Part shown: positions 8,167 through 30,384 of the stretch, one piece after another
Numbering within the stretch: the first letter of the stretch is position 1
How the letters are laid out: every line of letters begins with the position of its first letter
Assembly: GCA_037440325.1 (NCBI GenBank)
Contig: JBBIUG010000002.1
Span: 1 to 34,932 of the forward strand
Direction: 5' to 3'
Length of the DNA stretch: 34,932 nt
DNA from: Candidatus Nomurabacteria bacterium
GTDB lineage: Bacteria; Patescibacteriota; Minisyncoccia; Phycocordibacterales; UBA9973
Notes under the pieces: model-generated
Seen by the model: only the letters and a program-made list of their open reading frames with translations
The model's database searches: none
Told to the model about the DNA's origin: nothing
Position numbers and translations under genes: made by a program

Positions 8167-10389
8167 ATGGAACTTCACGAAAAAATAGAAACAAAATTTC
8201 GCCTAGACATAAATCAGAAAAAAGCCCTGCACCGACTGAAAATTTTTTCGGTGGCAGACTTACTTTTTCATTTTCCCCTCCGGTATAGCGATATTAGTGA
8301 AGTCAAAAACATTTCAGAACTGGTTCCAGGGGATATGGCAACGGTTTACGGGAAAATCTCAAAATTAAAGACAAAGAAATCTTTTCACACAAAAGTTCCA
8401 ATGGCTGAGGGCGAAATTGAAGATTTGTCAGGGAAAATAAAAATCACCTGGTTCAATCAAGCATATTTGGCCAAGATGATAAAGAATGAGGAAAATGTAA
8501 AACTAACCGGGAAGGTCACCCAAGGAAAAAATGGTATTTATTTGGCCAACCCCGAGTTTGAAAAAATGCCGGATATGCCGATAGACAAGCACGACACTCT
8601 TTTTACGGGAGAAAATGCACCAAACACCGGTTTCTCGTATCCCATTTATGCCGAGACTCGTGGCATCACTTCAAAATGGTTTTATCATGCAATAGAAAAA
8701 ATATTTAAAGAACACACGTTGGATCGAATCGAAGATTACATTCCAGATGATATATTAAAAAAATACCACCTCCCCACCCTAAAGACAGCCCTGGTTTGGA
8801 TTCACAAACCAAAGAACAAATACGACGCAGCATCCGCACGCAAAAGATTCGCTTTTGAAGAAGTTTTTTGTATTCAACTTGAGCGTCAGCATGATAAATT
8901 TGAATATAGAAAAAATAAATCTTTTCAAATAAAAACCGACAAAAGGGTTGTGGAAGACTTTTTGAAACGTTTTCCATTTTCATTAACCAACTCACAAAAG
9001 AAATCAACTGAAACAATTTTGGAAGACATGGGAAAGAGTTTTCCGATGTCTAGACTGCTTGAAGGCGATGTCGGTTCCGGAAAGACAGCCGTGGCGGCCA
9101 CCGCCACTCACGTAGCCATCAATCAGCGACCAAACGGACAAAGTTTCGGTAATCTGCAAGTAGCATATATGGCGCCTACTGAGATTCTGGCGACTCAACA
9201 TTTTGAATCATTCATCCAATACTTCAAACACCTGCCGATAAATATCGGGCTCATTACCGGATCTGGTTGTCGTAAATTTCCTTCAAAAATAAACCCGGAT
9301 GGTTGGACCACTATTTCTCGTGCCCAACTTTTAAAATGGACAGCAAATGGAGAAATACCAATTTTAATCGGCACCCATGCACTTATCCAAAAAACTGTGA
9401 AGTTTAAAAATCTGGCCATGGTAATAATTGACGAGCAGCATCGTTTTGGCACAGCCCAGAGAAGAAAACTAGTCCGCAAAGATGGGGTCGCTCCGCACTT
9501 ACTCTCCATGACCGCCACCCCCATTCCCCGCACACTAGCTCTCACTATTTATGGAGACCTAGACCTATCTTTGCTTTTAGAAATGCCCGCCGGACGAAAA
9601 CAAATAATTACTGAAATAATTACTCCAAACAAGCGAGAAGAAACTTATGAAAAAATAAAAGAAGAATTAAAAAATGGTAGACAGCTTTATGTCATTTGTC
9701 CGAGAATATTTGAAGCCGAAGCGGAGACTGCCCAAGTTTTTGGTCCCCGAGGGTCCCACTCCAAAGGAGAAGGGCGCAGGGGGCAAAAATTTGGGCAGCT
9801 GGAGCTCAAGGCGGTCACAACAGAGGCAAAACGACTGAAAAAAGAAGTTTTCCCGGAGTACGAAATAGGTATTCTGCACAGTAAAATGAGCAAGGAAAAA
9901 AAAGAAAAAGTAATGCAAGATTTTACTGAAGGAAAAATAAATATTTTGTGCGCCACCTCTGTAGTGGAAGTCGGAGTGAACGTTCCGAACGCCACTGTAA
10001 TCATTATCGAGGGGGCCGAACGTTTCGGGCTCGCCCAGCTTCACCAACTTCGTGGACGCGTCATCAGAAGTAATCATCAAGCATATTGTTACATTTTTGC
10101 CGAAGCAAAAAGTGAAAAGACGATGGAGAGACTGAAGGCAATCAAGACTGCCAAAAATGGTTTTGAGTTGGCGGAGCTTGATCTAGCGCTTCGCGGACCA
10201 GGAGAATTGGGTGGTACCAAGCAATGGGGCATCACTGATCTAGGAATGGAAGCAATAAAAAATATAAAAATGGTTGAGGCAGCCAGAACAGAAGCAATTC
10301 GCCTGATTGAAGAAGATTCGGAACTAATAAAATATCCACTTCTTAAACAAAAAGTGAAACAAAAGACGTCTGAATTCCATTTCGAATAA
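8167..10389 (+). CDS. recG: ATP-dependent DNA helicase RecG
   Basis: Wedge/OB N-terminus, motif I GDVGSGKT, DEQHRFG, SMTATPIPRT, and QLHQLRGRVIR. It carries an extra segment of about 24 aa between the helicase lobes (see repeat 9728-9798). Confidence 0.9.
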   Translation: MELHEKIETKFRLDINQKKALHRLKIFSVADLLFHFPLRYSDISEVKNISELVPGDMATVYGKISKLKTKKSFHTKVPMAEGEIEDLSGKIKITWFNQAYLAKMIKNEENVKLTGKVTQGKNGIYLANPEFEKMPDMPIDKHDTLFTGENAPNTGFSYPIYAETRGITSKWFYHAIEKIFKEHTLDRIEDYIPDDILKKYHLPTLKTALVWIHKPKNKYDAASARKRFAFEEVFCIQLERQHDKFEYRKNKSFQIKTDKRVVEDFLKRFPFSLTNSQKKSTETILEDMGKSFPMSRLLEGDVGSGKTAVAATATHVAINQRPNGQSFGNLQVAYMAPTEILATQHFESFIQYFKHLPINIGLITGSGCRKFPSKINPDGWTTISRAQLLKWTANGEIPILIGTHALIQKTVKFKNLAMVIIDEQHRFGTAQRRKLVRKDGVAPHLLSMTATPIPRTLALTIYGDLDLSLLLEMPAGRKQIITEIITPNKREETYEKIKEELKNGRQLYVICPRIFEAEAETAQVFGPRGSHSKGEGRRGQKFGQLELKAVTTEAKRLKKEVFPEYEIGILHSKMSKEKKEKVMQDFTEGKINILCATSVVEVGVNVPNATVIIIEGAERFGLAQLHQLRGRVIRSNHQAYCYIFAEAKSEKTMERLKAIKTAKNGFELAELDLALRGPGELGGTKQWGITDLGMEAIKNIKMVEAARTEAIRLIEEDSELIKYPLLKQKVKQKTSEFHFE
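9728..9798. repeat. GC-cored hairpin element, copy A, in-frame inside recG
   Basis: A 15-bp stem CTGCCCAAGTTTTTG / CAAAAATTTGGGCAG encloses the core CCGAGGGTCCCACTCCAAAGGAGAAGGGCGCAGG (9747-9780). The core is 33/34 identical to 16600-16633. Confidence 0.8.
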
Positions 10390-16096: not shown

Positions 16097-16173
16097 CCCG
16101 TGATAATAGCACAAAAAAGATTAAATGTTAATGAGAAAACTTTATCGGAAAATAAAACTTTTTGCGAATCGAG

Positions 16174-16561
16174 TGGAGATGGGGGAAATCGAATCCCCGT
16201 GCAGAAGGTTATTGTAAAGAAGTCTACATACATAGCACGCTTTTTTTGTTTAGATTAAAAAATTCTTAAGCGAGCGAAATATTTTTTAATCGAGTCCCTT
16301 TGTTTCGGATATTGTCAGGACATTCAATAATCCTATCCCGATAATATTATGCCTTAATCCATATATCGGAAGTCTATGGACAAGACACCAACCTCAGGCT
16401 TACGCGAGGGCTGGAGCGAATGCGAACACATTACCGAAGTAAGGTGAGCGGATTGCTGAAGTTAATTTTGCAATTAACAATTGAACGAAGTTTAACGAGA
16501 TTACGTTCATACTCGGCATGCATCAATAACAATAGGCCAACTGTCTATGCCTTGCATCCCC
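16174..16561 (-). ncRNA. ssrA: tmRNA (SsrA), one-piece
   Basis: The 5' GGGGATG pairs with the 3' CATCTCC-A, including a G3:U pair. T arm is GGGGA-TTCGATT-TCCCC. An internal frame ends ...GCT CCA GCC CTC GCG TAA (tag ending APALA). It lies next to smpB. CCA is not encoded. Confidence 0.85.
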
Positions 16562-16571
16562 AAATTTGTTT

Positions 16572-16660
16572 AAGCGAAGTTTCCTAAAAATTTTTTAGTC
16601 CGAGGGTCCCGCTCCAAAGGAGAAGGGCGCAGGACAAAAAATTATTAGAAAACTTCGCTT
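16572..16660. repeat. GC-cored hairpin element, copy B (smpB-ssrA spacer)
   Basis: A stem of about 25 bp, AAGCGAAGTTTCCTAAAAATTTTTT / AAAAAATTATTAGAAAACTTCGCTT, encloses GTCCGAGGGTCCCGCTCCAAAGGAGAAGGGCGCAGGAC. Confidence 0.8.
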
Positions 16661-16664
16661 CTTG

Positions 16665-17111
16665 TCAACGTGCCTTGTATTCTCTGCGGATCTCGCGATC
16701 CGTTTCGCGCTTTTTAATAGTTTCACGTTTATCAATTTTTTTCTTTCCTTTCACCAAAGCGACTTCTACTTTTATTTTTCTTCCTTTATTATACACTGAA
16801 ATCGGGGCAATTGTCAAACTCTTGTTTTTCTCGCTATCGGCGAGCTCTGCAATTTCTTTTTTCGTAAGCAAAAGTTTTCTATTCCTGAGTGGATCATAGT
16901 CTTTCGGCGCGTTTAACGGTTGATATGGCGGGATATTGGCGTTAATCAGAAAAGCTTCTCCCCCACGAATGATGATAAAGGCGCCGTCTAAGGACATTCG
17001 CCCTCCCCTTACCGCTTTCACCTCTGTACCCAAAAGCTCAATACCTGTTTCGTATTTTTGGAGTATTTCGTAGTTAAACCGAGCTTTTCTGTTTTCCGCA
17101 TAATTTGCCAT
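16665..17111 (-). CDS. smpB: SsrA-binding protein SmpB
   Basis: NRKARFNYEI...GTEVKA...G, the typical SmpB signature, with a basic C-terminal tail. Confidence 0.95.
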   Translation of the reverse strand: MANYAENRKARFNYEILQKYETGIELLGTEVKAVRGGRMSLDGAFIIIRGGEAFLINANIPPYQPLNAPKDYDPLRNRKLLLTKKEIAELADSEKNKSLTIAPISVYNKGRKIKVEVALVKGKKKIDKRETIKKRETDREIRREYKAR

Positions 17112-21659: not shown

Positions 21660-24428
21660 CTACTCCATCGTTTTATATCGATTTATTATCTCAGTTTCCA
21701 CTTCTTCCCTATCGCGACCGTATTTTATGTAGGAAAGTTCCTTCAAATTTTCCACAATGCTTGGATTGCCGATCTCTGGCGCCAAGGTGCGCAGATTAAA
21801 TGGTTTTGTTGGTTGCCCTTTAACCAACATACTCATATAAGCGTTGTAATTGTCGAGTTTGGTAATATCCGCTGCGGTGAATTGTGGTTTGAATTTTGGT
21901 TCCAAAAATACCGCGTCTTCGGTACCTACTCGGAAAACCGCCATCGAACCGACATTGCCAAAGACGGCGTTCTTGATACCCTCTTCAAGCTGGCTGATGT
22001 ATTGATGCGCAATGTTGAGAGACAATCGATATTTTCTCGCCTCCGAAAGAATTGAAGCGATCGAATCGGTGGTGACATTCTGAAACTCATCAATATAAAG
22101 ATAAAAATCATTCATCGGTTTGCCGAACATGTCGACACGCGACAGGGCCGCCATTTGTATTTTCCCCACGAGCACAAGACCGATCAAATTTGCGTTAATG
22201 TCTCCTAGCCTCCCCTTGGACAGATTTACCAAAAGAATTTTCTTCTCGTCCATAATCTTACGGAAATTAAAAACAGAATTTTGCTGAAGCACTACCGGGC
22301 GCATGATGTCGTTCGAGATAAAATTATCGAATTTGGATGAGATATATGGAACAAAGTTCGCAAGCGATTGATCTCCGGAAGTTTGTTCGGCCGCAACCCA
22401 GAATTGCTTAATAATCGGATTTTTACATTTGGAAAGTTTGTAATCACGGAACTTTTTGTCTGCCAATACTCGAGTAATCTCGAGCAGAGTGGAGCCGGAC
22501 TCCGGGTCCTCCATTACCAAGAAGGCGCTATTCCTAAAGTACTGTTCGAACATAGCTCCGCCACCGATTTTCATATCAAAAAGCTTATTAAAAATACCCA
22601 TCATTTCATTTACCACGAAGGTTTTTTGCTCCGGATATTTCGGATCATATTCAAGCATATTAAGACCCATTGGGCGCGCAATATATGCAGGGTCAAAGTA
22701 AATAACATCATCTATACGTTCCTTTGGAATACGAGATAAAATGGTCTGGATATCCGTGCCGTGCGGATCAATATAACAACAGCCGTCCCCGTTTTTGATG
22801 TCCTGGGTAATCATGTTGAGCATAATGTTTGTCTTCCCTGTCCCTGTCTGGCCGATAACATAAAAATGTCTCATGCGGTCTTCGCGAGCAAGGTGAATTT
22901 CTGTATCTTTACCCCGATAATTGTTTACTCCTAAAATTATTCCCTCATTCCCCATTTCAATCGGAGCAGGACCAATGCCGGCTCGTGCTTCTTTGAGCTG
23001 CGGCTGACTGCCAATGCCAACCGGAAAATGAAACACCGAAGAAAGTTCTTTCAAATTCATCGGCAACACCTTGTCGCCCAAAAAGGTGCGGTAGGAAAAA
23101 TCATGAAATAGTTTTTTCAAATCCCCTCCGGAAACTCGTTCGAAAACAAATGAATTGCTGGCTGCTTCGGAAAACTGGTTGAAGGATGATTCTATCTCGC
23201 GCAAAATCGCCTCCGCACGTTCTTTGCTTTCTCCGGAGGCTATCACCCGAATATTCGCTTTCATGATGGTACTTTTTATTTTATTGCCGATTTTTTCTGC
23301 CGCTCCTTCGTCTACCGCTCGCCTGCCTTTCATATATTTCTCTTTTACTTCGCTGTCTTCTTTTTCCTTCTTGCCGAAAAGCAGCTCTTTACCAACGCTA
23401 ATGAAGGCTCTGTTAAATTTATAATAATTATCCGCCGCGTTTTTAACAGACATGCCGTCTTTTACGTCGTCTAGAATTTTATGAAATTCATTAATAAATT
23501 TGTCGCCGGACGGGACGATAACAAGTTGAATCGCTGCCCCCTCCCCTGAAGTTTTTAATTTTGAAAACACATTCAGAATCGGGTTCATCGGATCATGATC
23601 AATATTGTCATACGTTTTTATCGGCATGACTGCTCGCTCGGAAAAACTGGCGTACGCGCCGACCGAGCCGCCTTTTTCATTGAAGATATTGTAATCATCG
23701 GAGACTTCTTTAATTTTCGCATCGTGGTAAAAAGCTAAAACCTGTTTTTCAAAAAGAGAAAGATATTTGTTGGGAACTGCTGCGTACACCACCACTTCGT
23801 CACTTTGATTTCCTAGCGCTACTTCTAGAGTAAAATAATTTTCTTTTTCATTATATTTTCCTTCTCCGATAGATTGCATGCCTGCATAAAATTGTTCCAT
23901 TGCCCCGATGAATTCTTTGAAATTCTTTGATTCATCCGCTTCATCTTGAGGTGGCGGTAAGGTAATTTCAAAAAGCGTCATGTTTAGAGATTTGTAAAAA
24001 GGAGTACCTTCCTTTAAATCAAAAATAACTTGCCCAGTTTTAATATATTGAATAAGAATGCGGTGAAAATCATCGTCTACATGTGGGTTGTTCATCGCCC
24101 CCACCACAGAAAGTGCATTTCGAATTCCTTTAGTGACAACAATTCCCAAAAGCTCTTCCATAACGACATCGTGCGTCTCTGGTTTAAGCGCAAGCACAAT
24201 CCCCTCTGTCTCTTTTTTGCTGATTAGACTGTCTTCATGAACCAGTTTTTCGGCTGGAATATTTTTGTATCCGACAATAACGTCCTTCGCGGCATTTTCC
24301 TTTGTGTGTTCAATGTGTCCGGCCTTGATAAGTTCTTCTTCTCTGGCTTTAACGTGTGCACGCAAATAGTCTAGCTCCTCTTCTGGGCTTTTGAACTTCG
24401 GCATCTCTTTAAAGAATGACGGTTCCAT
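21660..24428 (-). CDS. Large VirD4/TraG/TraD-like (FtsK-HerA superfamily) P-loop ATPase with an unassigned N-terminal half of about 500 aa
   Basis: Walker A GQTGTGKT, Walker B FYLYIDEFQNV, and the TraG/TraD C-terminal-type motif EARKYRLSLNIAHQYISQL. Confidence 0.7.
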   Translation of the reverse strand: MEPSFFKEMPKFKSPEEELDYLRAHVKAREEELIKAGHIEHTKENAAKDVIVGYKNIPAEKLVHEDSLISKKETEGIVLALKPETHDVVMEELLGIVVTKGIRNALSVVGAMNNPHVDDDFHRILIQYIKTGQVIFDLKEGTPFYKSLNMTLFEITLPPPQDEADESKNFKEFIGAMEQFYAGMQSIGEGKYNEKENYFTLEVALGNQSDEVVVYAAVPNKYLSLFEKQVLAFYHDAKIKEVSDDYNIFNEKGGSVGAYASFSERAVMPIKTYDNIDHDPMNPILNVFSKLKTSGEGAAIQLVIVPSGDKFINEFHKILDDVKDGMSVKNAADNYYKFNRAFISVGKELLFGKKEKEDSEVKEKYMKGRRAVDEGAAEKIGNKIKSTIMKANIRVIASGESKERAEAILREIESSFNQFSEAASNSFVFERVSGGDLKKLFHDFSYRTFLGDKVLPMNLKELSSVFHFPVGIGSQPQLKEARAGIGPAPIEMGNEGIILGVNNYRGKDTEIHLAREDRMRHFYVIGQTGTGKTNIMLNMITQDIKNGDGCCYIDPHGTDIQTILSRIPKERIDDVIYFDPAYIARPMGLNMLEYDPKYPEQKTFVVNEMMGIFNKLFDMKIGGGAMFEQYFRNSAFLVMEDPESGSTLLEITRVLADKKFRDYKLSKCKNPIIKQFWVAAEQTSGDQSLANFVPYISSKFDNFISNDIMRPVVLQQNSVFNFRKIMDEKKILLVNLSKGRLGDINANLIGLVLVGKIQMAALSRVDMFGKPMNDFYLYIDEFQNVTTDSIASILSEARKYRLSLNIAHQYISQLEEGIKNAVFGNVGSMAVFRVGTEDAVFLEPKFKPQFTAADITKLDNYNAYMSMLVKGQPTKPFNLRTLAPEIGNPSIVENLKELSYIKYGRDREEVETEIINRYKTME

Positions 24429-24446
24429 TTACTGTATTATAACACA

Positions 24447-24524
24447 AATATCTCGGAAGGAATTTTAAACGTCGTGGGTCCCCTGCCCTTTTGTCTCCGA
24501 GGGCGAAGACGCAAAAAATTCTTT
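24447..24524. repeat. GC-cored hairpin element, copy C (between map and the VirD4-like gene)
   Basis: Arms AATATCTCGGAAGGAATTTTAAAC / GCAAAAAATTCTTTCCGAGATATT enclose GTCGTGGGTCCCCTGCCCTTTTGTCTCCGAGGGCGAAGAC. The core aligns with copy B at the GGGTCCC and AGGGCG blocks. Confidence 0.65.
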
Positions 24525-24535
24525 CCGAGATATTA

Positions 24536-25303
24536 TTATATTTTAGTTAATACTTCTGGCTCGCCCCCAGTAATCAAGAGAGTGTGTTCAAAATGAGCGC
24601 TTTGCTTACCGTCTGCAGTGCGAAAAGTCCACCCGTCTTTATCCAAAACCACATTTTTTGTTCCGTTGTTCACCATCGGCTCTATCGCGATAACCATTCC
24701 TGGAACCAATTTTGCTCCAACGTGTGCTTTTCCAAAATTCGGAATATATGGATCTTCGTGTATTGCCCTGCCGACTCCATGACCTGCTAAAATTTCTACT
24801 ATTCCATATTTGTGTGGACGAACGAAACTCTCCACCGCATGGCTGATATCCCCTATTCTGTTGCCTCCTTGTGCTGCTTCTATGCCAATCTTCAAAGACT
24901 TCTCAGTGATTTCCAAAAGTTTTTTGGAAGCAGGACTGATTTCTCCGACCCCCACTGTAATAGCCATGTCGGTAAAAAGATTTTTGTGTTTAAGCCCTAG
25001 GTCTAAAGAAATAATATCTCCCTCCTTTAGAATTTTTTCTTTTTTGGGTATCCCGTGAACCACTTCATTATTTACCGAAATACAGATTGATGCCGGATAT
25101 GGAGAATCTGCGCCTTCAGGTTTGTAATTTAAAAATGCCGGAGTGTCACCCATTTCTTTTATTAGCTTAAAAGTATAATCATCCAGATCTTTAGTGGAAA
25201 TCCCTGGCTTAACCATATCTTTAACTTTATAAAGAATGGCGGCCAATCTCTTGCCTCCCTCTCTTAATATTTCTATTTCTTCCGGTGTTTTTATTATTAT
25301 CAT
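24536..25303 (-). CDS. map: Methionine aminopeptidase, type I
   Basis: Metal ligands in context: DIISLDLG, DMAITV, GHGVG, IEPM, and EHT. Confidence 0.95.
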   Translation of the reverse strand: MIIIKTPEEIEILREGGKRLAAILYKVKDMVKPGISTKDLDDYTFKLIKEMGDTPAFLNYKPEGADSPYPASICISVNNEVVHGIPKKEKILKEGDIISLDLGLKHKNLFTDMAITVGVGEISPASKKLLEITEKSLKIGIEAAQGGNRIGDISHAVESFVRPHKYGIVEILAGHGVGRAIHEDPYIPNFGKAHVGAKLVPGMVIAIEPMVNNGTKNVVLDKDGWTFRTADGKQSAHFEHTLLITGGEPEVLTKI

Positions 25304-30291: not shown

Positions 30292-30316
30292 AAAAATAAT
30301 GTCGGGAGAGTTTTAC

Positions 30317-30384
30317 AATATCTCGTTTTTTTTCTTTTAGGGCTTATCCCAAAAGGAGAAAAACGGATTGATTAAAACGATATT
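30317..30384. repeat. Degenerate GC-cored hairpin element, copy D (rpsZ 5' leader)
   Basis: Arms AATATCTCGTTTT / AAAACGATATT share ATATCTCG with copy C. The core TAGGGCTTATCCCAAAAGGAGAAAAACGG retains the CCAAA(A)GGAGAA block. Confidence 0.5.

Follow-up and report, generated by a model that had tools for sequence, protein, structure and literature searches.

A hairpin repeat with a conserved tip and covarying arms in the smpB-ssrA spacer and in housekeeping genes of Candidatus Nomurabacteria

Several families of small palindromic repeats offer points of comparison for the hairpin element described here. The RPE palindromes of Rickettsia (RPE-1 to RPE-10) are often found in frame within open reading frames (ORFs), and each of these families is described as encoding a conserved peptide (PMC10969869). 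In Neisseria, the hairpin RNA of the Correia elements (CREE/NEMIS) can be a substrate of RNase III and the ends of these elements can create promoters (PMC2649163). Correia elements are furthermore numerous and intergenic, and possess terminal inverted repeats, a TA duplication and an IHF site. REP sequences are 20-40 nt long, extragenic, present in high copy number and flank a RAYT gene, the conserved parts of a REPIN being its ends. The attC sites of gene cassettes, recognized by IntI, have conserved ends and a variable middle, ERIC/IRU sequences are extragenic imperfect palindromes of about 100 nt for which selection has been argued to act on the RNA, and a classical MITE derived from a DDE-type IS is expected to have terminal inverted repeats, a target-site duplication and an autonomous parent IS whose ends match its own. 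The CPR/Patescibacteria have tiny, gene-dense genomes that are thought to be poor in selfish DNA.

The window analysed in this work, a stretch of 34,932 nt, is contig C2 of a Candidatus Nomurabacteria genome (hereafter G000), a 555-kb assembly of 57 contigs that is 95% complete. The element found in this window and in related genomes is an RPE/MITE-like coding palindrome of CPR bacteria whose tip is invariant and whose hairpin is strand-specific. No published description of such an element was found for a CPR lineage. The copy located between smpB and ssrA (copy B) is, in our judgement, likely to be a member of a non-autonomous and selfish family of hairpin repeats of Candidatus Nomurabacteria, resembling RPEs and MITEs, and such a repeat would persist in tiny CPR genomes by occupying essential genes and RNA leaders. 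Two covariance models were used throughout, R1, built on the genome's own seven best copies, and R2, a broader model.

On the minus strand of the window, smpB is followed by a spacer of 103 nt and by the tmRNA gene. smpB was taken from the ORF list (16665..17111, stop codon at 16665-16667); the identical gene of L217 matches Pfam SmpB, and the SmpB of the window shares 72-88% identity with SmpB of 30 genus genomes. The tmRNA gene ssrA was assigned with Rfam RF00023 (16171..16561, minus strand, 111.7 bits), and no tmRNA was called by ARAGORN at 16171-16561. Copy B (16573..16659, plus strand), an 87-nt type-1 element matching R1 with 93.0 bits (E 2.9e-21), occupies the spacer between both genes with its core in plus orientation, antisense to smpB as well as to ssrA. 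It is flanked by AAACAAATTT on the minus strand and CTTGTCAACG on the plus strand. According to the initial annotation, 4 nt separate the smpB stop from this hairpin and 10 nt separate the hairpin from the 5' end of the mature tmRNA, a geometry that is borne out by the ORF list and the Rfam match. The annotation had also proposed a perfect stem of about 25 bp; the stem is indeed long, about 28 bp, and is near-perfect rather than perfect, with 16 bp, one mismatch and 12 more pairs interrupted by one bulge on the transcribed (minus) strand. The ends of the copy (AGCGAAG...CTTCGCT) pair perfectly. Its predicted fold energy is -42.2 kcal/mol on the plus strand and -41.4 kcal/mol on the minus strand, with a z of about -7 compared to dinucleotide shuffles, and an Rfam search for a known RNA family gave only insignificant matches to miRNA-like hairpins. 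Between near-identical strains, no presence/absence polymorphism was seen at the B site, a comparison for which the independent sample SRR11582171 is the sole other one with the SmpB of the window; it holds an identical copy B at the same filled site. A metagenome scan for the leader/tmRNA junction, made to the same end, gave no match.

A sigma-70-type promoter, TTGACA-18-TATAAT (16788..16817, minus strand, 12/12 consensus matches), lies within the smpB coding region. This promoter is found at the same smpB codons (Leu-Thr ... Tyr-Asn) across the genus, with an exact TTGACA and TATAAT in 24 of 31 genomes and a variant of one or two bases in the other 7. The codons that make up the hexamers are strongly biased, since the Leu codon is TTG in 31/31 genomes (19% of Leu codons elsewhere in smpB), the Thr codon ACA in 25/31 (29% elsewhere) and the Tyr codon TAT in 31/31 (61% elsewhere), and this constraint at synonymous sites identifies it as a real promoter. 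The native smpB-ssrA spacers being of only 2-23 nt, an intra-smpB promoter can only serve ssrA. Thus, the TTGACA-18-TATAAT element within smpB, which is reported here for the first time, probably drives ssrA, and would give a pre-tmRNA leader of about 120 nt or more consisting of the smpB 3' end and the spacer. Judging from the position of the promoter, copy B is almost certainly transcribed within this pre-tmRNA 5' leader. Leaders of up to about 480 nt appear to be tolerated in relatives. A second promoter-like site, TTGACA-16-AATAAT (16641..16668, minus strand), has 11/12 matches as a consensus match only and spans the junction, its -35 hexamer TTGACA being provided by the smpB end, where it overlaps the stop codon, and its -10 hexamer AATAAT by an arm of the element. 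Its equivalent in a second genome with a filled spacer (G013) is TTGACA-16-AAAAAT, with 10/12 matches, again a consensus match only. The TTGACA and AATAAT at 16641-16668 recall the creation of promoters by Correia elements, with which the Nomurabacteria element also shares its nature of small inverted repeat, a conserved core and a location between co-transcribed genes; on the other hand, none of the further Correia features listed above, from terminal inverted repeats to intergenic abundance, is seen here.

A long stem in a transcribed leader raises the possibility, already put forward in the initial annotation, that copy B acts as an RNase III-type processing or insulation site in an smpB-ssrA transcript, either by separating the smpB mRNA from the pre-tmRNA or by shielding the folding of the tmRNA. 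The predicted fold of the leader keeps the hairpin of copy B intact, its stem exceeds the length of about 20 bp of double-stranded RNA expected of such a substrate, an RNase III gene is present in the genome (rnc homologue at C1:35499-35894, 132.7 bits), and the Correia elements of Neisseria, which bind RNase III and can create promoters, provide a precedent (PMC2649163). RNase P RNA of type A was not found in the incomplete G000 assembly. The spacer was compared in 31 genus genomes, read in tmRNA orientation. In 15 genomes the spacer is 2-23 nt long, unstructured and typically AAATAAAATAT; in 3 genomes it has 34-51 nt and is weakly folded; in 11 genomes it has 63-141 nt and forms strong hairpins (-17 to -47 kcal/mol); and in 2 genomes it holds an insert of 345-358 nt encoding a small GIY-YIG protein. 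Although a strong hairpin of -17 kcal/mol or lower in 11/31 spacers would be in line with a processing site, these hairpins are of several unrelated kinds and the Nomurabacteria element is found in 2/31 spacers only, those of the window and of G013, in opposite orientations. The larger spacer inserts of the relatives matched neither a ribozyme nor any other RNA family, and a leader that tolerates a GIY-YIG gene, together with the unstructured spacers of about half of the genomes, speaks against a required signal. Furthermore, copy B is not followed by a U-tract and does not coincide with a terminator-like site, and the same long stem occurs within at least 9 housekeeping ORFs of G000, in both orientations. 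Consequently, the hairpin being unconserved in the spacer, reversed in G013 and present as a stem in so many ORFs, no dedicated function is needed to account for it. From this comparison, copy B is not a conserved processing signal; cleavage by RNase III would be physically possible, the comparison lending it no support, and we regard a processing or insulation site as improbable. For annotation, this means that a hairpin ahead of a tmRNA gene should not be taken as a conserved processing signal. As a separate observation, the occurrence of a strong hairpin in 11 of the 31 genus spacers could reflect some benefit of a leader hairpin as such.

The G013 spacer (L055) also documents how the element lies in its target. 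Its element matches R2 with 96.4 bits and has its core reversed relative to the tmRNA when compared to the window, while the left arms of the two copies are 86% identical. The junction is the same in both, reading TTGACAAT joined to AAGCGAAG in G013 and TTGACAAG joined to AAGCGAAG in the window, and no target-site duplication of more than 2 nt was found at these two spacer junctions. Comparison of the empty relatives with the filled spacer indicates that both arms are part of the insert. The final 10 nt ahead of the tmRNA of the window (AAACAAATTT) are similar to the native short spacer, which places the insertion between the stop codon of smpB and the native leader. On these comparisons, the smpB-ssrA spacer is an insertion hot spot with a native length of 2-23 nt. 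In the proposed scheme, copies would persist only at permissive places of gene-dense genomes of 0.5-0.9 Mb, one kind of such places being untranslated stretches. Copy B would then reside in the pre-tmRNA leader and presumably be discarded when the mature 5' end is made, leader removal being presumed in this step, so that the smpB-ssrA spacer would represent a safe harbour for the element and not a site that requires it as a signal.

Two further copies are present in the window. Copy A (9720..9806, plus strand) is an 87-nt type-1 element in frame within recG (8167-10389) and matches R1 with 92.6 bits, and copy C (24446..24535, plus strand), a 90-nt type-2 member (R1 26.7 bits, E 1.6e-4; R2 34.2 bits), fills the gap between the ORFs 24536-25303 and 21660-24428, both on the minus strand. 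The 32-nt core is nearly identical in A and B (GAGGGTCCCRCTCCRAAGGAGAAGGGCGCAGG) and that of copy C is related to it (GGGTCCCCTGCCCTTTTGTCTCCGAGGGCG). Fold z against shuffles was -5.8 for A, -7.2 for B and -5.8 for C. Four copies had been claimed in the initial annotation, all on the plus strand; A, B and C hold as model matches, and all three match R1 on the plus strand, in one orientation as stated. The fourth, hairpin D (30314..30384, plus strand), is a local hairpin (fold z -5.1) that reaches 15.8 bits with R1 (E about 0.1) and is absent from the matches of the broader model R2, by which A, B and C are found. Its membership in the family is therefore not supported and it was discarded as a member, its kinship being unproven; the 8-mer ATATCTCG common to C and D is within chance expectation. 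For the remaining copies it could be argued that gene ends in AT-rich genomes often carry hairpins and that B and its kin are just unrelated chance hairpins or ordinary intrinsic terminators. Such an explanation has to face E values of 1e-18 to 1e-21, a 32-nt core shared almost exactly and the location of most copies within ORFs; copy B is not followed by a T-run on either strand and no terminator-like site overlaps it. It was thus rejected, and its probability is considered negligible.

The initial annotation had suggested a genome-wide census, and additional copies do exist in G000 and in its relatives. About 15 copies were counted in G000, namely 7 of type-1, 2 of type-1b (C27:3440, in leuS, and C34:4894) and 6 of type-2 including copy C. 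The seven type-1 copies are each 87 or 90 nt long and score 85-99 bits with R1, and about 8 members were found by model search to be more distant than type-1. Within the genus, 1-9 R1 matches per genome were obtained in 18 of 36 species genomes, and outside of it a single one among 24 further families of the order had any R1 match. A scan of 185,579 species genomes with an exact pattern of the core returned at least 114 stretches, and among the matches listed nearly all were from MAGs labelled Candidatus Nomurabacteria, Paceibacterota, Parcubacteria or Patescibacteria. R1 applied to the fetched loci gave at least 103 matches, and the family thus comprises more than 100 copies in about 40 Candidatus Nomurabacteria/Paceibacterota MAGs. 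No core match was found among viral contigs, and a phage as vector was rejected on this ground.

The majority of these copies reside in genes. Among 105 non-identical copies, 65 (~60%) lie within ORFs that stay open over 40 codons or more to either side of the copy, and the length is a multiple of three in 55/65 coding copies vs 15/40 non-coding ones (Fisher p 1.3e-6). In G000, the hosts of in-frame type-1 copies are tgt, recG, fmt, an uvrD/pcrA-type helicase and uvrC (twice), and those of type-2 and type-1b copies are mnmA, leuS and two other ORFs. The host genes recur between species: 14 copies were found in an rluD-like pseudouridine synthase, 13 in uvrC (at two sites), 10 at the 5' end of prfA, 8 in uvrD, 5 in tgt, 4 each in recG, dus, a cysteine desulfurase and leuS, and 3 each in ligA and mnmA. 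Open frames and lengths of 3n suggest that the coding copies are read through in translation. Thus, the recG ORF is open across copy A, the element being read as ...AEAETAQVFGPRGSHSKGEGRRGQKFGQLE..., and a predicted peptide spanning the insert in the RecG of the window is ...GPRGSHSKGEGRRGQK...; the insert, of 25 aa, maps precisely between residues 592 and 593 in the T. maritima RecG structure (1GM5), with contiguous flanks. Of 30 genus loci, 26 lack an insert at the same site and read ...FEPDPEKELALNVKSA... In the loop of the rluD-like protein, 14 loci have an insert, which replaces a short turn, and 15 have none; at these coding sites a few codons are replaced. Unrelated hairpin inserts were seen in the same loops of other species (L188-L190 for recG; L230, L233 and L235 for the rluD-like gene), and this presence of several hairpin families at the same positions indicates that the loops are permissive landing sites. 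Loops of housekeeping proteins would constitute the other kind of permissive place in the proposed scheme, with copies there being 3n long, free of stop codons and read through. In-frame copies of the element are the explanation of 25-35 extra residues in many CPR housekeeping proteins, and the element therefore bears on the origin of new surface loops in core enzymes.

In these respects the family is close to the RPEs: both are dispersed palindromes without a gene of their own that form a stable hairpin and reside in small genomes, and in both a large share of the copies is in frame in unrelated housekeeping ORFs and read through while the rest lies between genes. The two nevertheless differ in host (Rickettsia vs CPR/Patescibacteria) and in size, with about 100-150 bp for RPEs compared to 87-103 nt here. 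A conserved peptide characterizes the RPEs, whereas the Nomurabacteria copies are found in all frames and both orientations and it is the tip, as nucleic acid, that is conserved. As all three frames are used in either orientation and the peptides differ (e.g. RGSHSEGEGRR, LRPSPSERDPR and CALPGVPGGTL), no single peptide is conserved. In the Nomurabacteria element, the hairpin is also under active maintenance; its arms covary and it has a G·T bias that is specific to one strand. Compared by description, not by sequence, and considering the Candidatus Nomurabacteria host, common descent with the RPEs is unlikely.

The element, 87-103 nt in length, is organized around a near-invariant, asymmetric and GC-rich tip, CCGAGGGTCCC-apical stem-GAAGGGCGCAGG. 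Beyond the tip follow a collar made of a T-run and an A-run and then arms of 15-20 bp that are free in sequence yet paired, and the ends usually form a GRA/GRA internal loop closed by AGC/GCT. The initial annotation had noted that the arms differ between copies and pair within each copy, and this is amply confirmed by covariation. In the seven copies of the genome itself, 20 of 34 predicted pairs have changed on either side and still pair. Across 98 distinct copies, paired cells amount to 94.4% vs 69.9% after column shuffles and 40-55% with slid partners, the alignment being fitted to the model, which somewhat favours the pairing figure. Double changes were found in 27/34 pairs of these 98 copies, all four Watson-Crick pair types occur at every arm position, and a T·G of the core is kept in 95 of the 98. 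At the rluD-like site of 13 species, where the flanks are conserved, the arms are wholly different yet paired in each copy and the core is nearly constant. Pairwise identity at orthologous sites is 70-79% in the coding flanks, 55-70% in the arms and 83-98% in the core. The arms thus appear to drift about as weakly constrained sequence subject to pairing, and a hypermutation of the arms, considered as an alternative, is not needed. The tip exceeds host coding DNA in conservation in any orientation, frame or coding status, implying that conservation acts on the nucleic acid. Dispersal of the family, covarying arms and a kept core support the earlier suggestion of an old palindromic element that undergoes compensatory change, with its structure under selection. 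Derivation of the arms from the target flanks was also considered and rejected, as the rluD-like arms differ despite conserved flanks and the comparison with G013 shows both arms to be inserted.

How the arms are kept matched can be approached from their similarities. Between sites, arm identity reaches 0.81-0.84 (prfA vs the rluD-like site, and two copies in one uvrD), and near-identical arms at different sites were not found among the copies; the former shows that whole elements did transpose in the past, whereas the latter gives no sign of a recent burst. Among 13 rluD-like copies, 3 have their core flipped with respect to the host gene, and such flips at one site are consistent with recombination between the arms. 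In copy B, the GRA/GRA internal loop usual at the ends is fully paired (AGCGAAG...CTTCGCT), as would be expected from arm-to-arm copying. Arm-to-arm copying or recombination would thus probably help both arm matching and core flips. ERIC/IRU sequences are similar to the Nomurabacteria element in being imperfect palindromes of about 100 nt that occur in transcribed regions in either orientation and show compensatory change.

In a palindrome, a transition mismatch that is G·T on one strand is A·C on the other. The left arm was aligned to the reverse complement of the right one with a scoring neutral to G·T and A·C, the strand being set by the core alone. In 95 copies, which as in all strand and orientation statistics given here are not independent of each other, 88 G·T were found against 12 A·C (p 2e-15), with more G·T in 51 copies and more A·C in 6; a model-based alignment gave 100 G·T vs 16 A·C. 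Counted in variable arm columns only, the G·T and A·C numbers were 57 and 6 in copies opposite to the host gene, 19 and 7 in non-coding copies, and 6 and 2 in copies of the same sense as the host gene, a small class yet the decisive one for the strand test. Selection at the mRNA level as the source of the G·T bias was rejected, since it predicts a reversed sign in the sense copies and the ratio of 6:2, in small numbers, is in the same direction. Orientation is biased as well: of 65 coding copies, 49 are opposite to the host gene vs 16 in the same sense (p 5e-5), and in 89 of 109 copies the core-defined plus strand coincides with the flank strand (±6 kb) that is rich in C and T (p 1e-11), GC skew being confounded with gene orientation. 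Stop-codon content does not account for this orientation bias, the proportions of open frames (47% vs 57%) differing too little. The G·T bias on the core-defined strand and the antisense placement on the C-rich strand are both reported here for the first time.

As the strand that pairs better usually runs antisense to the host gene, the relevant hairpin is mostly not that of the host mRNA, and in this the element departs from ERIC, where selection has been argued at the RNA level. The simplest reading is that the selected form is probably a single-stranded DNA hairpin of the element's own strand; in the scheme proposed, pairing of the arms would be kept on this core-defined strand, usually antisense to the local genes. 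Leading strands are usually G-rich and genes co-oriented with replication. If the usual skew holds here, the foldable strand would mostly be on the leading-strand template, which fits a better survival where folding is rare. There is a resemblance with attC sites, in which structure is kept and sequence is not, a folded single strand is recognized with asymmetric features determining the choice of strand, and the foldable strand is preferentially located on the strand less often single-stranded. In contrast to attC, it is the tip and not the ends that is conserved here, copies lie within ORFs, and neither cassette nor integrase is associated, so that the likeness is one of analogy only. The tip, the covarying arms and the mismatch spectrum together provide a testable handle on how the element is recognized and maintained.

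The same observations could be read as signs of a host-useful hairpin, a strand-specific single-stranded DNA or RNA structure whose tip binds a cellular factor of replication, recombination or regulation and which is selected at each site. A core that exceeds the flanking coding sequence in conservation at orthologous sites across species, pairing that is kept while the arms drift, the strand-specific G·T bias and the strong orientation bias are all compatible with this. However, the distribution is patchy, half of the genus genomes being without the element, and most orthologous sites are empty in relatives; at the same loops, decayed or replaced inserts are found, the copy number is low and variable, and no partner protein is known. 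A host function selected site by site is hence judged unlikely, and a selfish repeat that survives at permissive places remains the preferred reading of the family.

ORFs of the Y1 type (IS200/RAYT-type, PF01797) of about 210-260 aa are abundant in the genus; 33 of 41 genomes have them, a single genome containing as many as 11, and one of them is located at C3:23375-24052 in G000. Y1 genes were found in 16/18 genomes with the element vs 13/18 without it, G013 contains nine elements and zero Y1 genes, and at the six Y1 loci examined (the own one and five others) no element was adjoining. A link of the element with Y1/RAYT was rejected, there being neither adjacency at these loci nor correlation. 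Neither G000 nor the loci examined yielded an autonomous parent IS sharing the ends of the element, in disagreement with the expectation for a classical MITE, and no mobilizing enzyme was identified among the candidates examined. As neither a target-site duplication nor, among near-identical strains, a presence/absence polymorphism was seen, current mobility is not demonstrated. The element as a whole is a single inverted repeat. It resembles REP/REPIN-RAYT and IS200/IS605 systems by the imperfect hairpin formed by single-stranded DNA of one strand, the lack of a visible target-site duplication, the strand and orientation bias and the abundance of Y1_Tnp genes in the genus; it departs from REPs and REPINs, on the other hand, by its conserved tip, its few and mostly intragenic copies, and the Y1 genes being neither adjacent nor correlated.

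Taking these resemblances further, the family might be a new kind of single-strand hairpin element, in which the tip would be the recognition module and the arms a clamp matched by arm-to-arm copying, with the foldable strand retained in antisense, C-rich position and probably as the leading-strand template. It would be mobilized by a CPR enzyme or be domesticated, and would stand nearer to attC or IS200-type systems than to MITEs with TIRs or to RPEs. We put this forward tentatively, as a possibility that is rather doubtful at present; if true, such an element would, as a by-product, be a steady source of new loops in essential CPR proteins and of hairpins in RNA leaders, that of pre-tmRNA included. 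Apart from the question of mobilization, the invariant core and the pairing kept in the long term at orthologous sites go beyond what is expected of a decaying selfish repeat, and could mean that the element has a host function.

Within the smpB coding sequence, on the minus strand at positions 16788-16817 of the window, a perfect sigma-70 promoter (TTGACA-18-TATAAT) was found, and a comparison of 31 genomes of the genus shows its synonymous positions to be conserved. Because of this conservation, transcription of ssrA appears, judging from sequence, to be driven from within smpB. A further promoter-like site lies at the insertion junction of the type-1 hairpin repeat (window 16641-16668, minus strand), with its -35 TTGACA overlapping the smpB stop codon and its -10, AATAAT or AAAAAT, supplied by the arm of the element; an equivalent is found at L055, the smpB-ssrA locus of genome G013, so that the site is present in both genomes (2/2) with the element in this spacer. 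The tmRNA at window 16171-16561 was missing from the ARAGORN output, and the Rfam match there scored 111.7 bits. A search of the whole assembly (95% complete) gave no match to bacterial type-A RNase P RNA (RF00010).

The smpB-ssrA spacer also holds other inserts in the genus. In G034 (locus L053), it contains a small GC hairpin, CCCTCTCCTT-N3-5-AAGGAGAGGG, which was also observed in frame in the rluD-like protein loop at L230 and L235; it is a second hairpin family occupying the same kinds of sites as the type-1 element. At L063 (G018) and L072 (G032) the spacer is filled by palindromes of a different family, each roughly 140 nt long (-42 to -45 kcal/mol) and with no Rfam match, and at L046 (G027) and L050 (G026) it carries an insert of 345-358 nt with a small GIY-YIG nuclease-like ORF, which lies within the putative pre-tmRNA leader.

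The RecG loop of copy A, the in-frame copy in recG, holds three differing hairpin inserts in G006, G007 and G005 (L188, L189 and L190, respectively). None of the three was matched by either covariance model of the hairpin family, R1 or the broader R2, and their ends have AGCGRAG/GGAGC-like motifs in common with type 1.

The genus is rich in Y1_Tnp (IS200/RAYT-like) ORFs, each about 210-260 aa long; a single 0.6-Mb genome can carry as many as 11, and one lies in the window's own assembly (G000:C3:23375-24052). They showed no adjacency to the hairpin family at the loci examined and no correlation with it among the genus genomes.

Two full-length copies of the element, both in frame (L104 and L152), were also observed on JAMPXW010000001.1, a 276-kb contig labelled Burkholderiales, which is probably mislabelled or misbinned.
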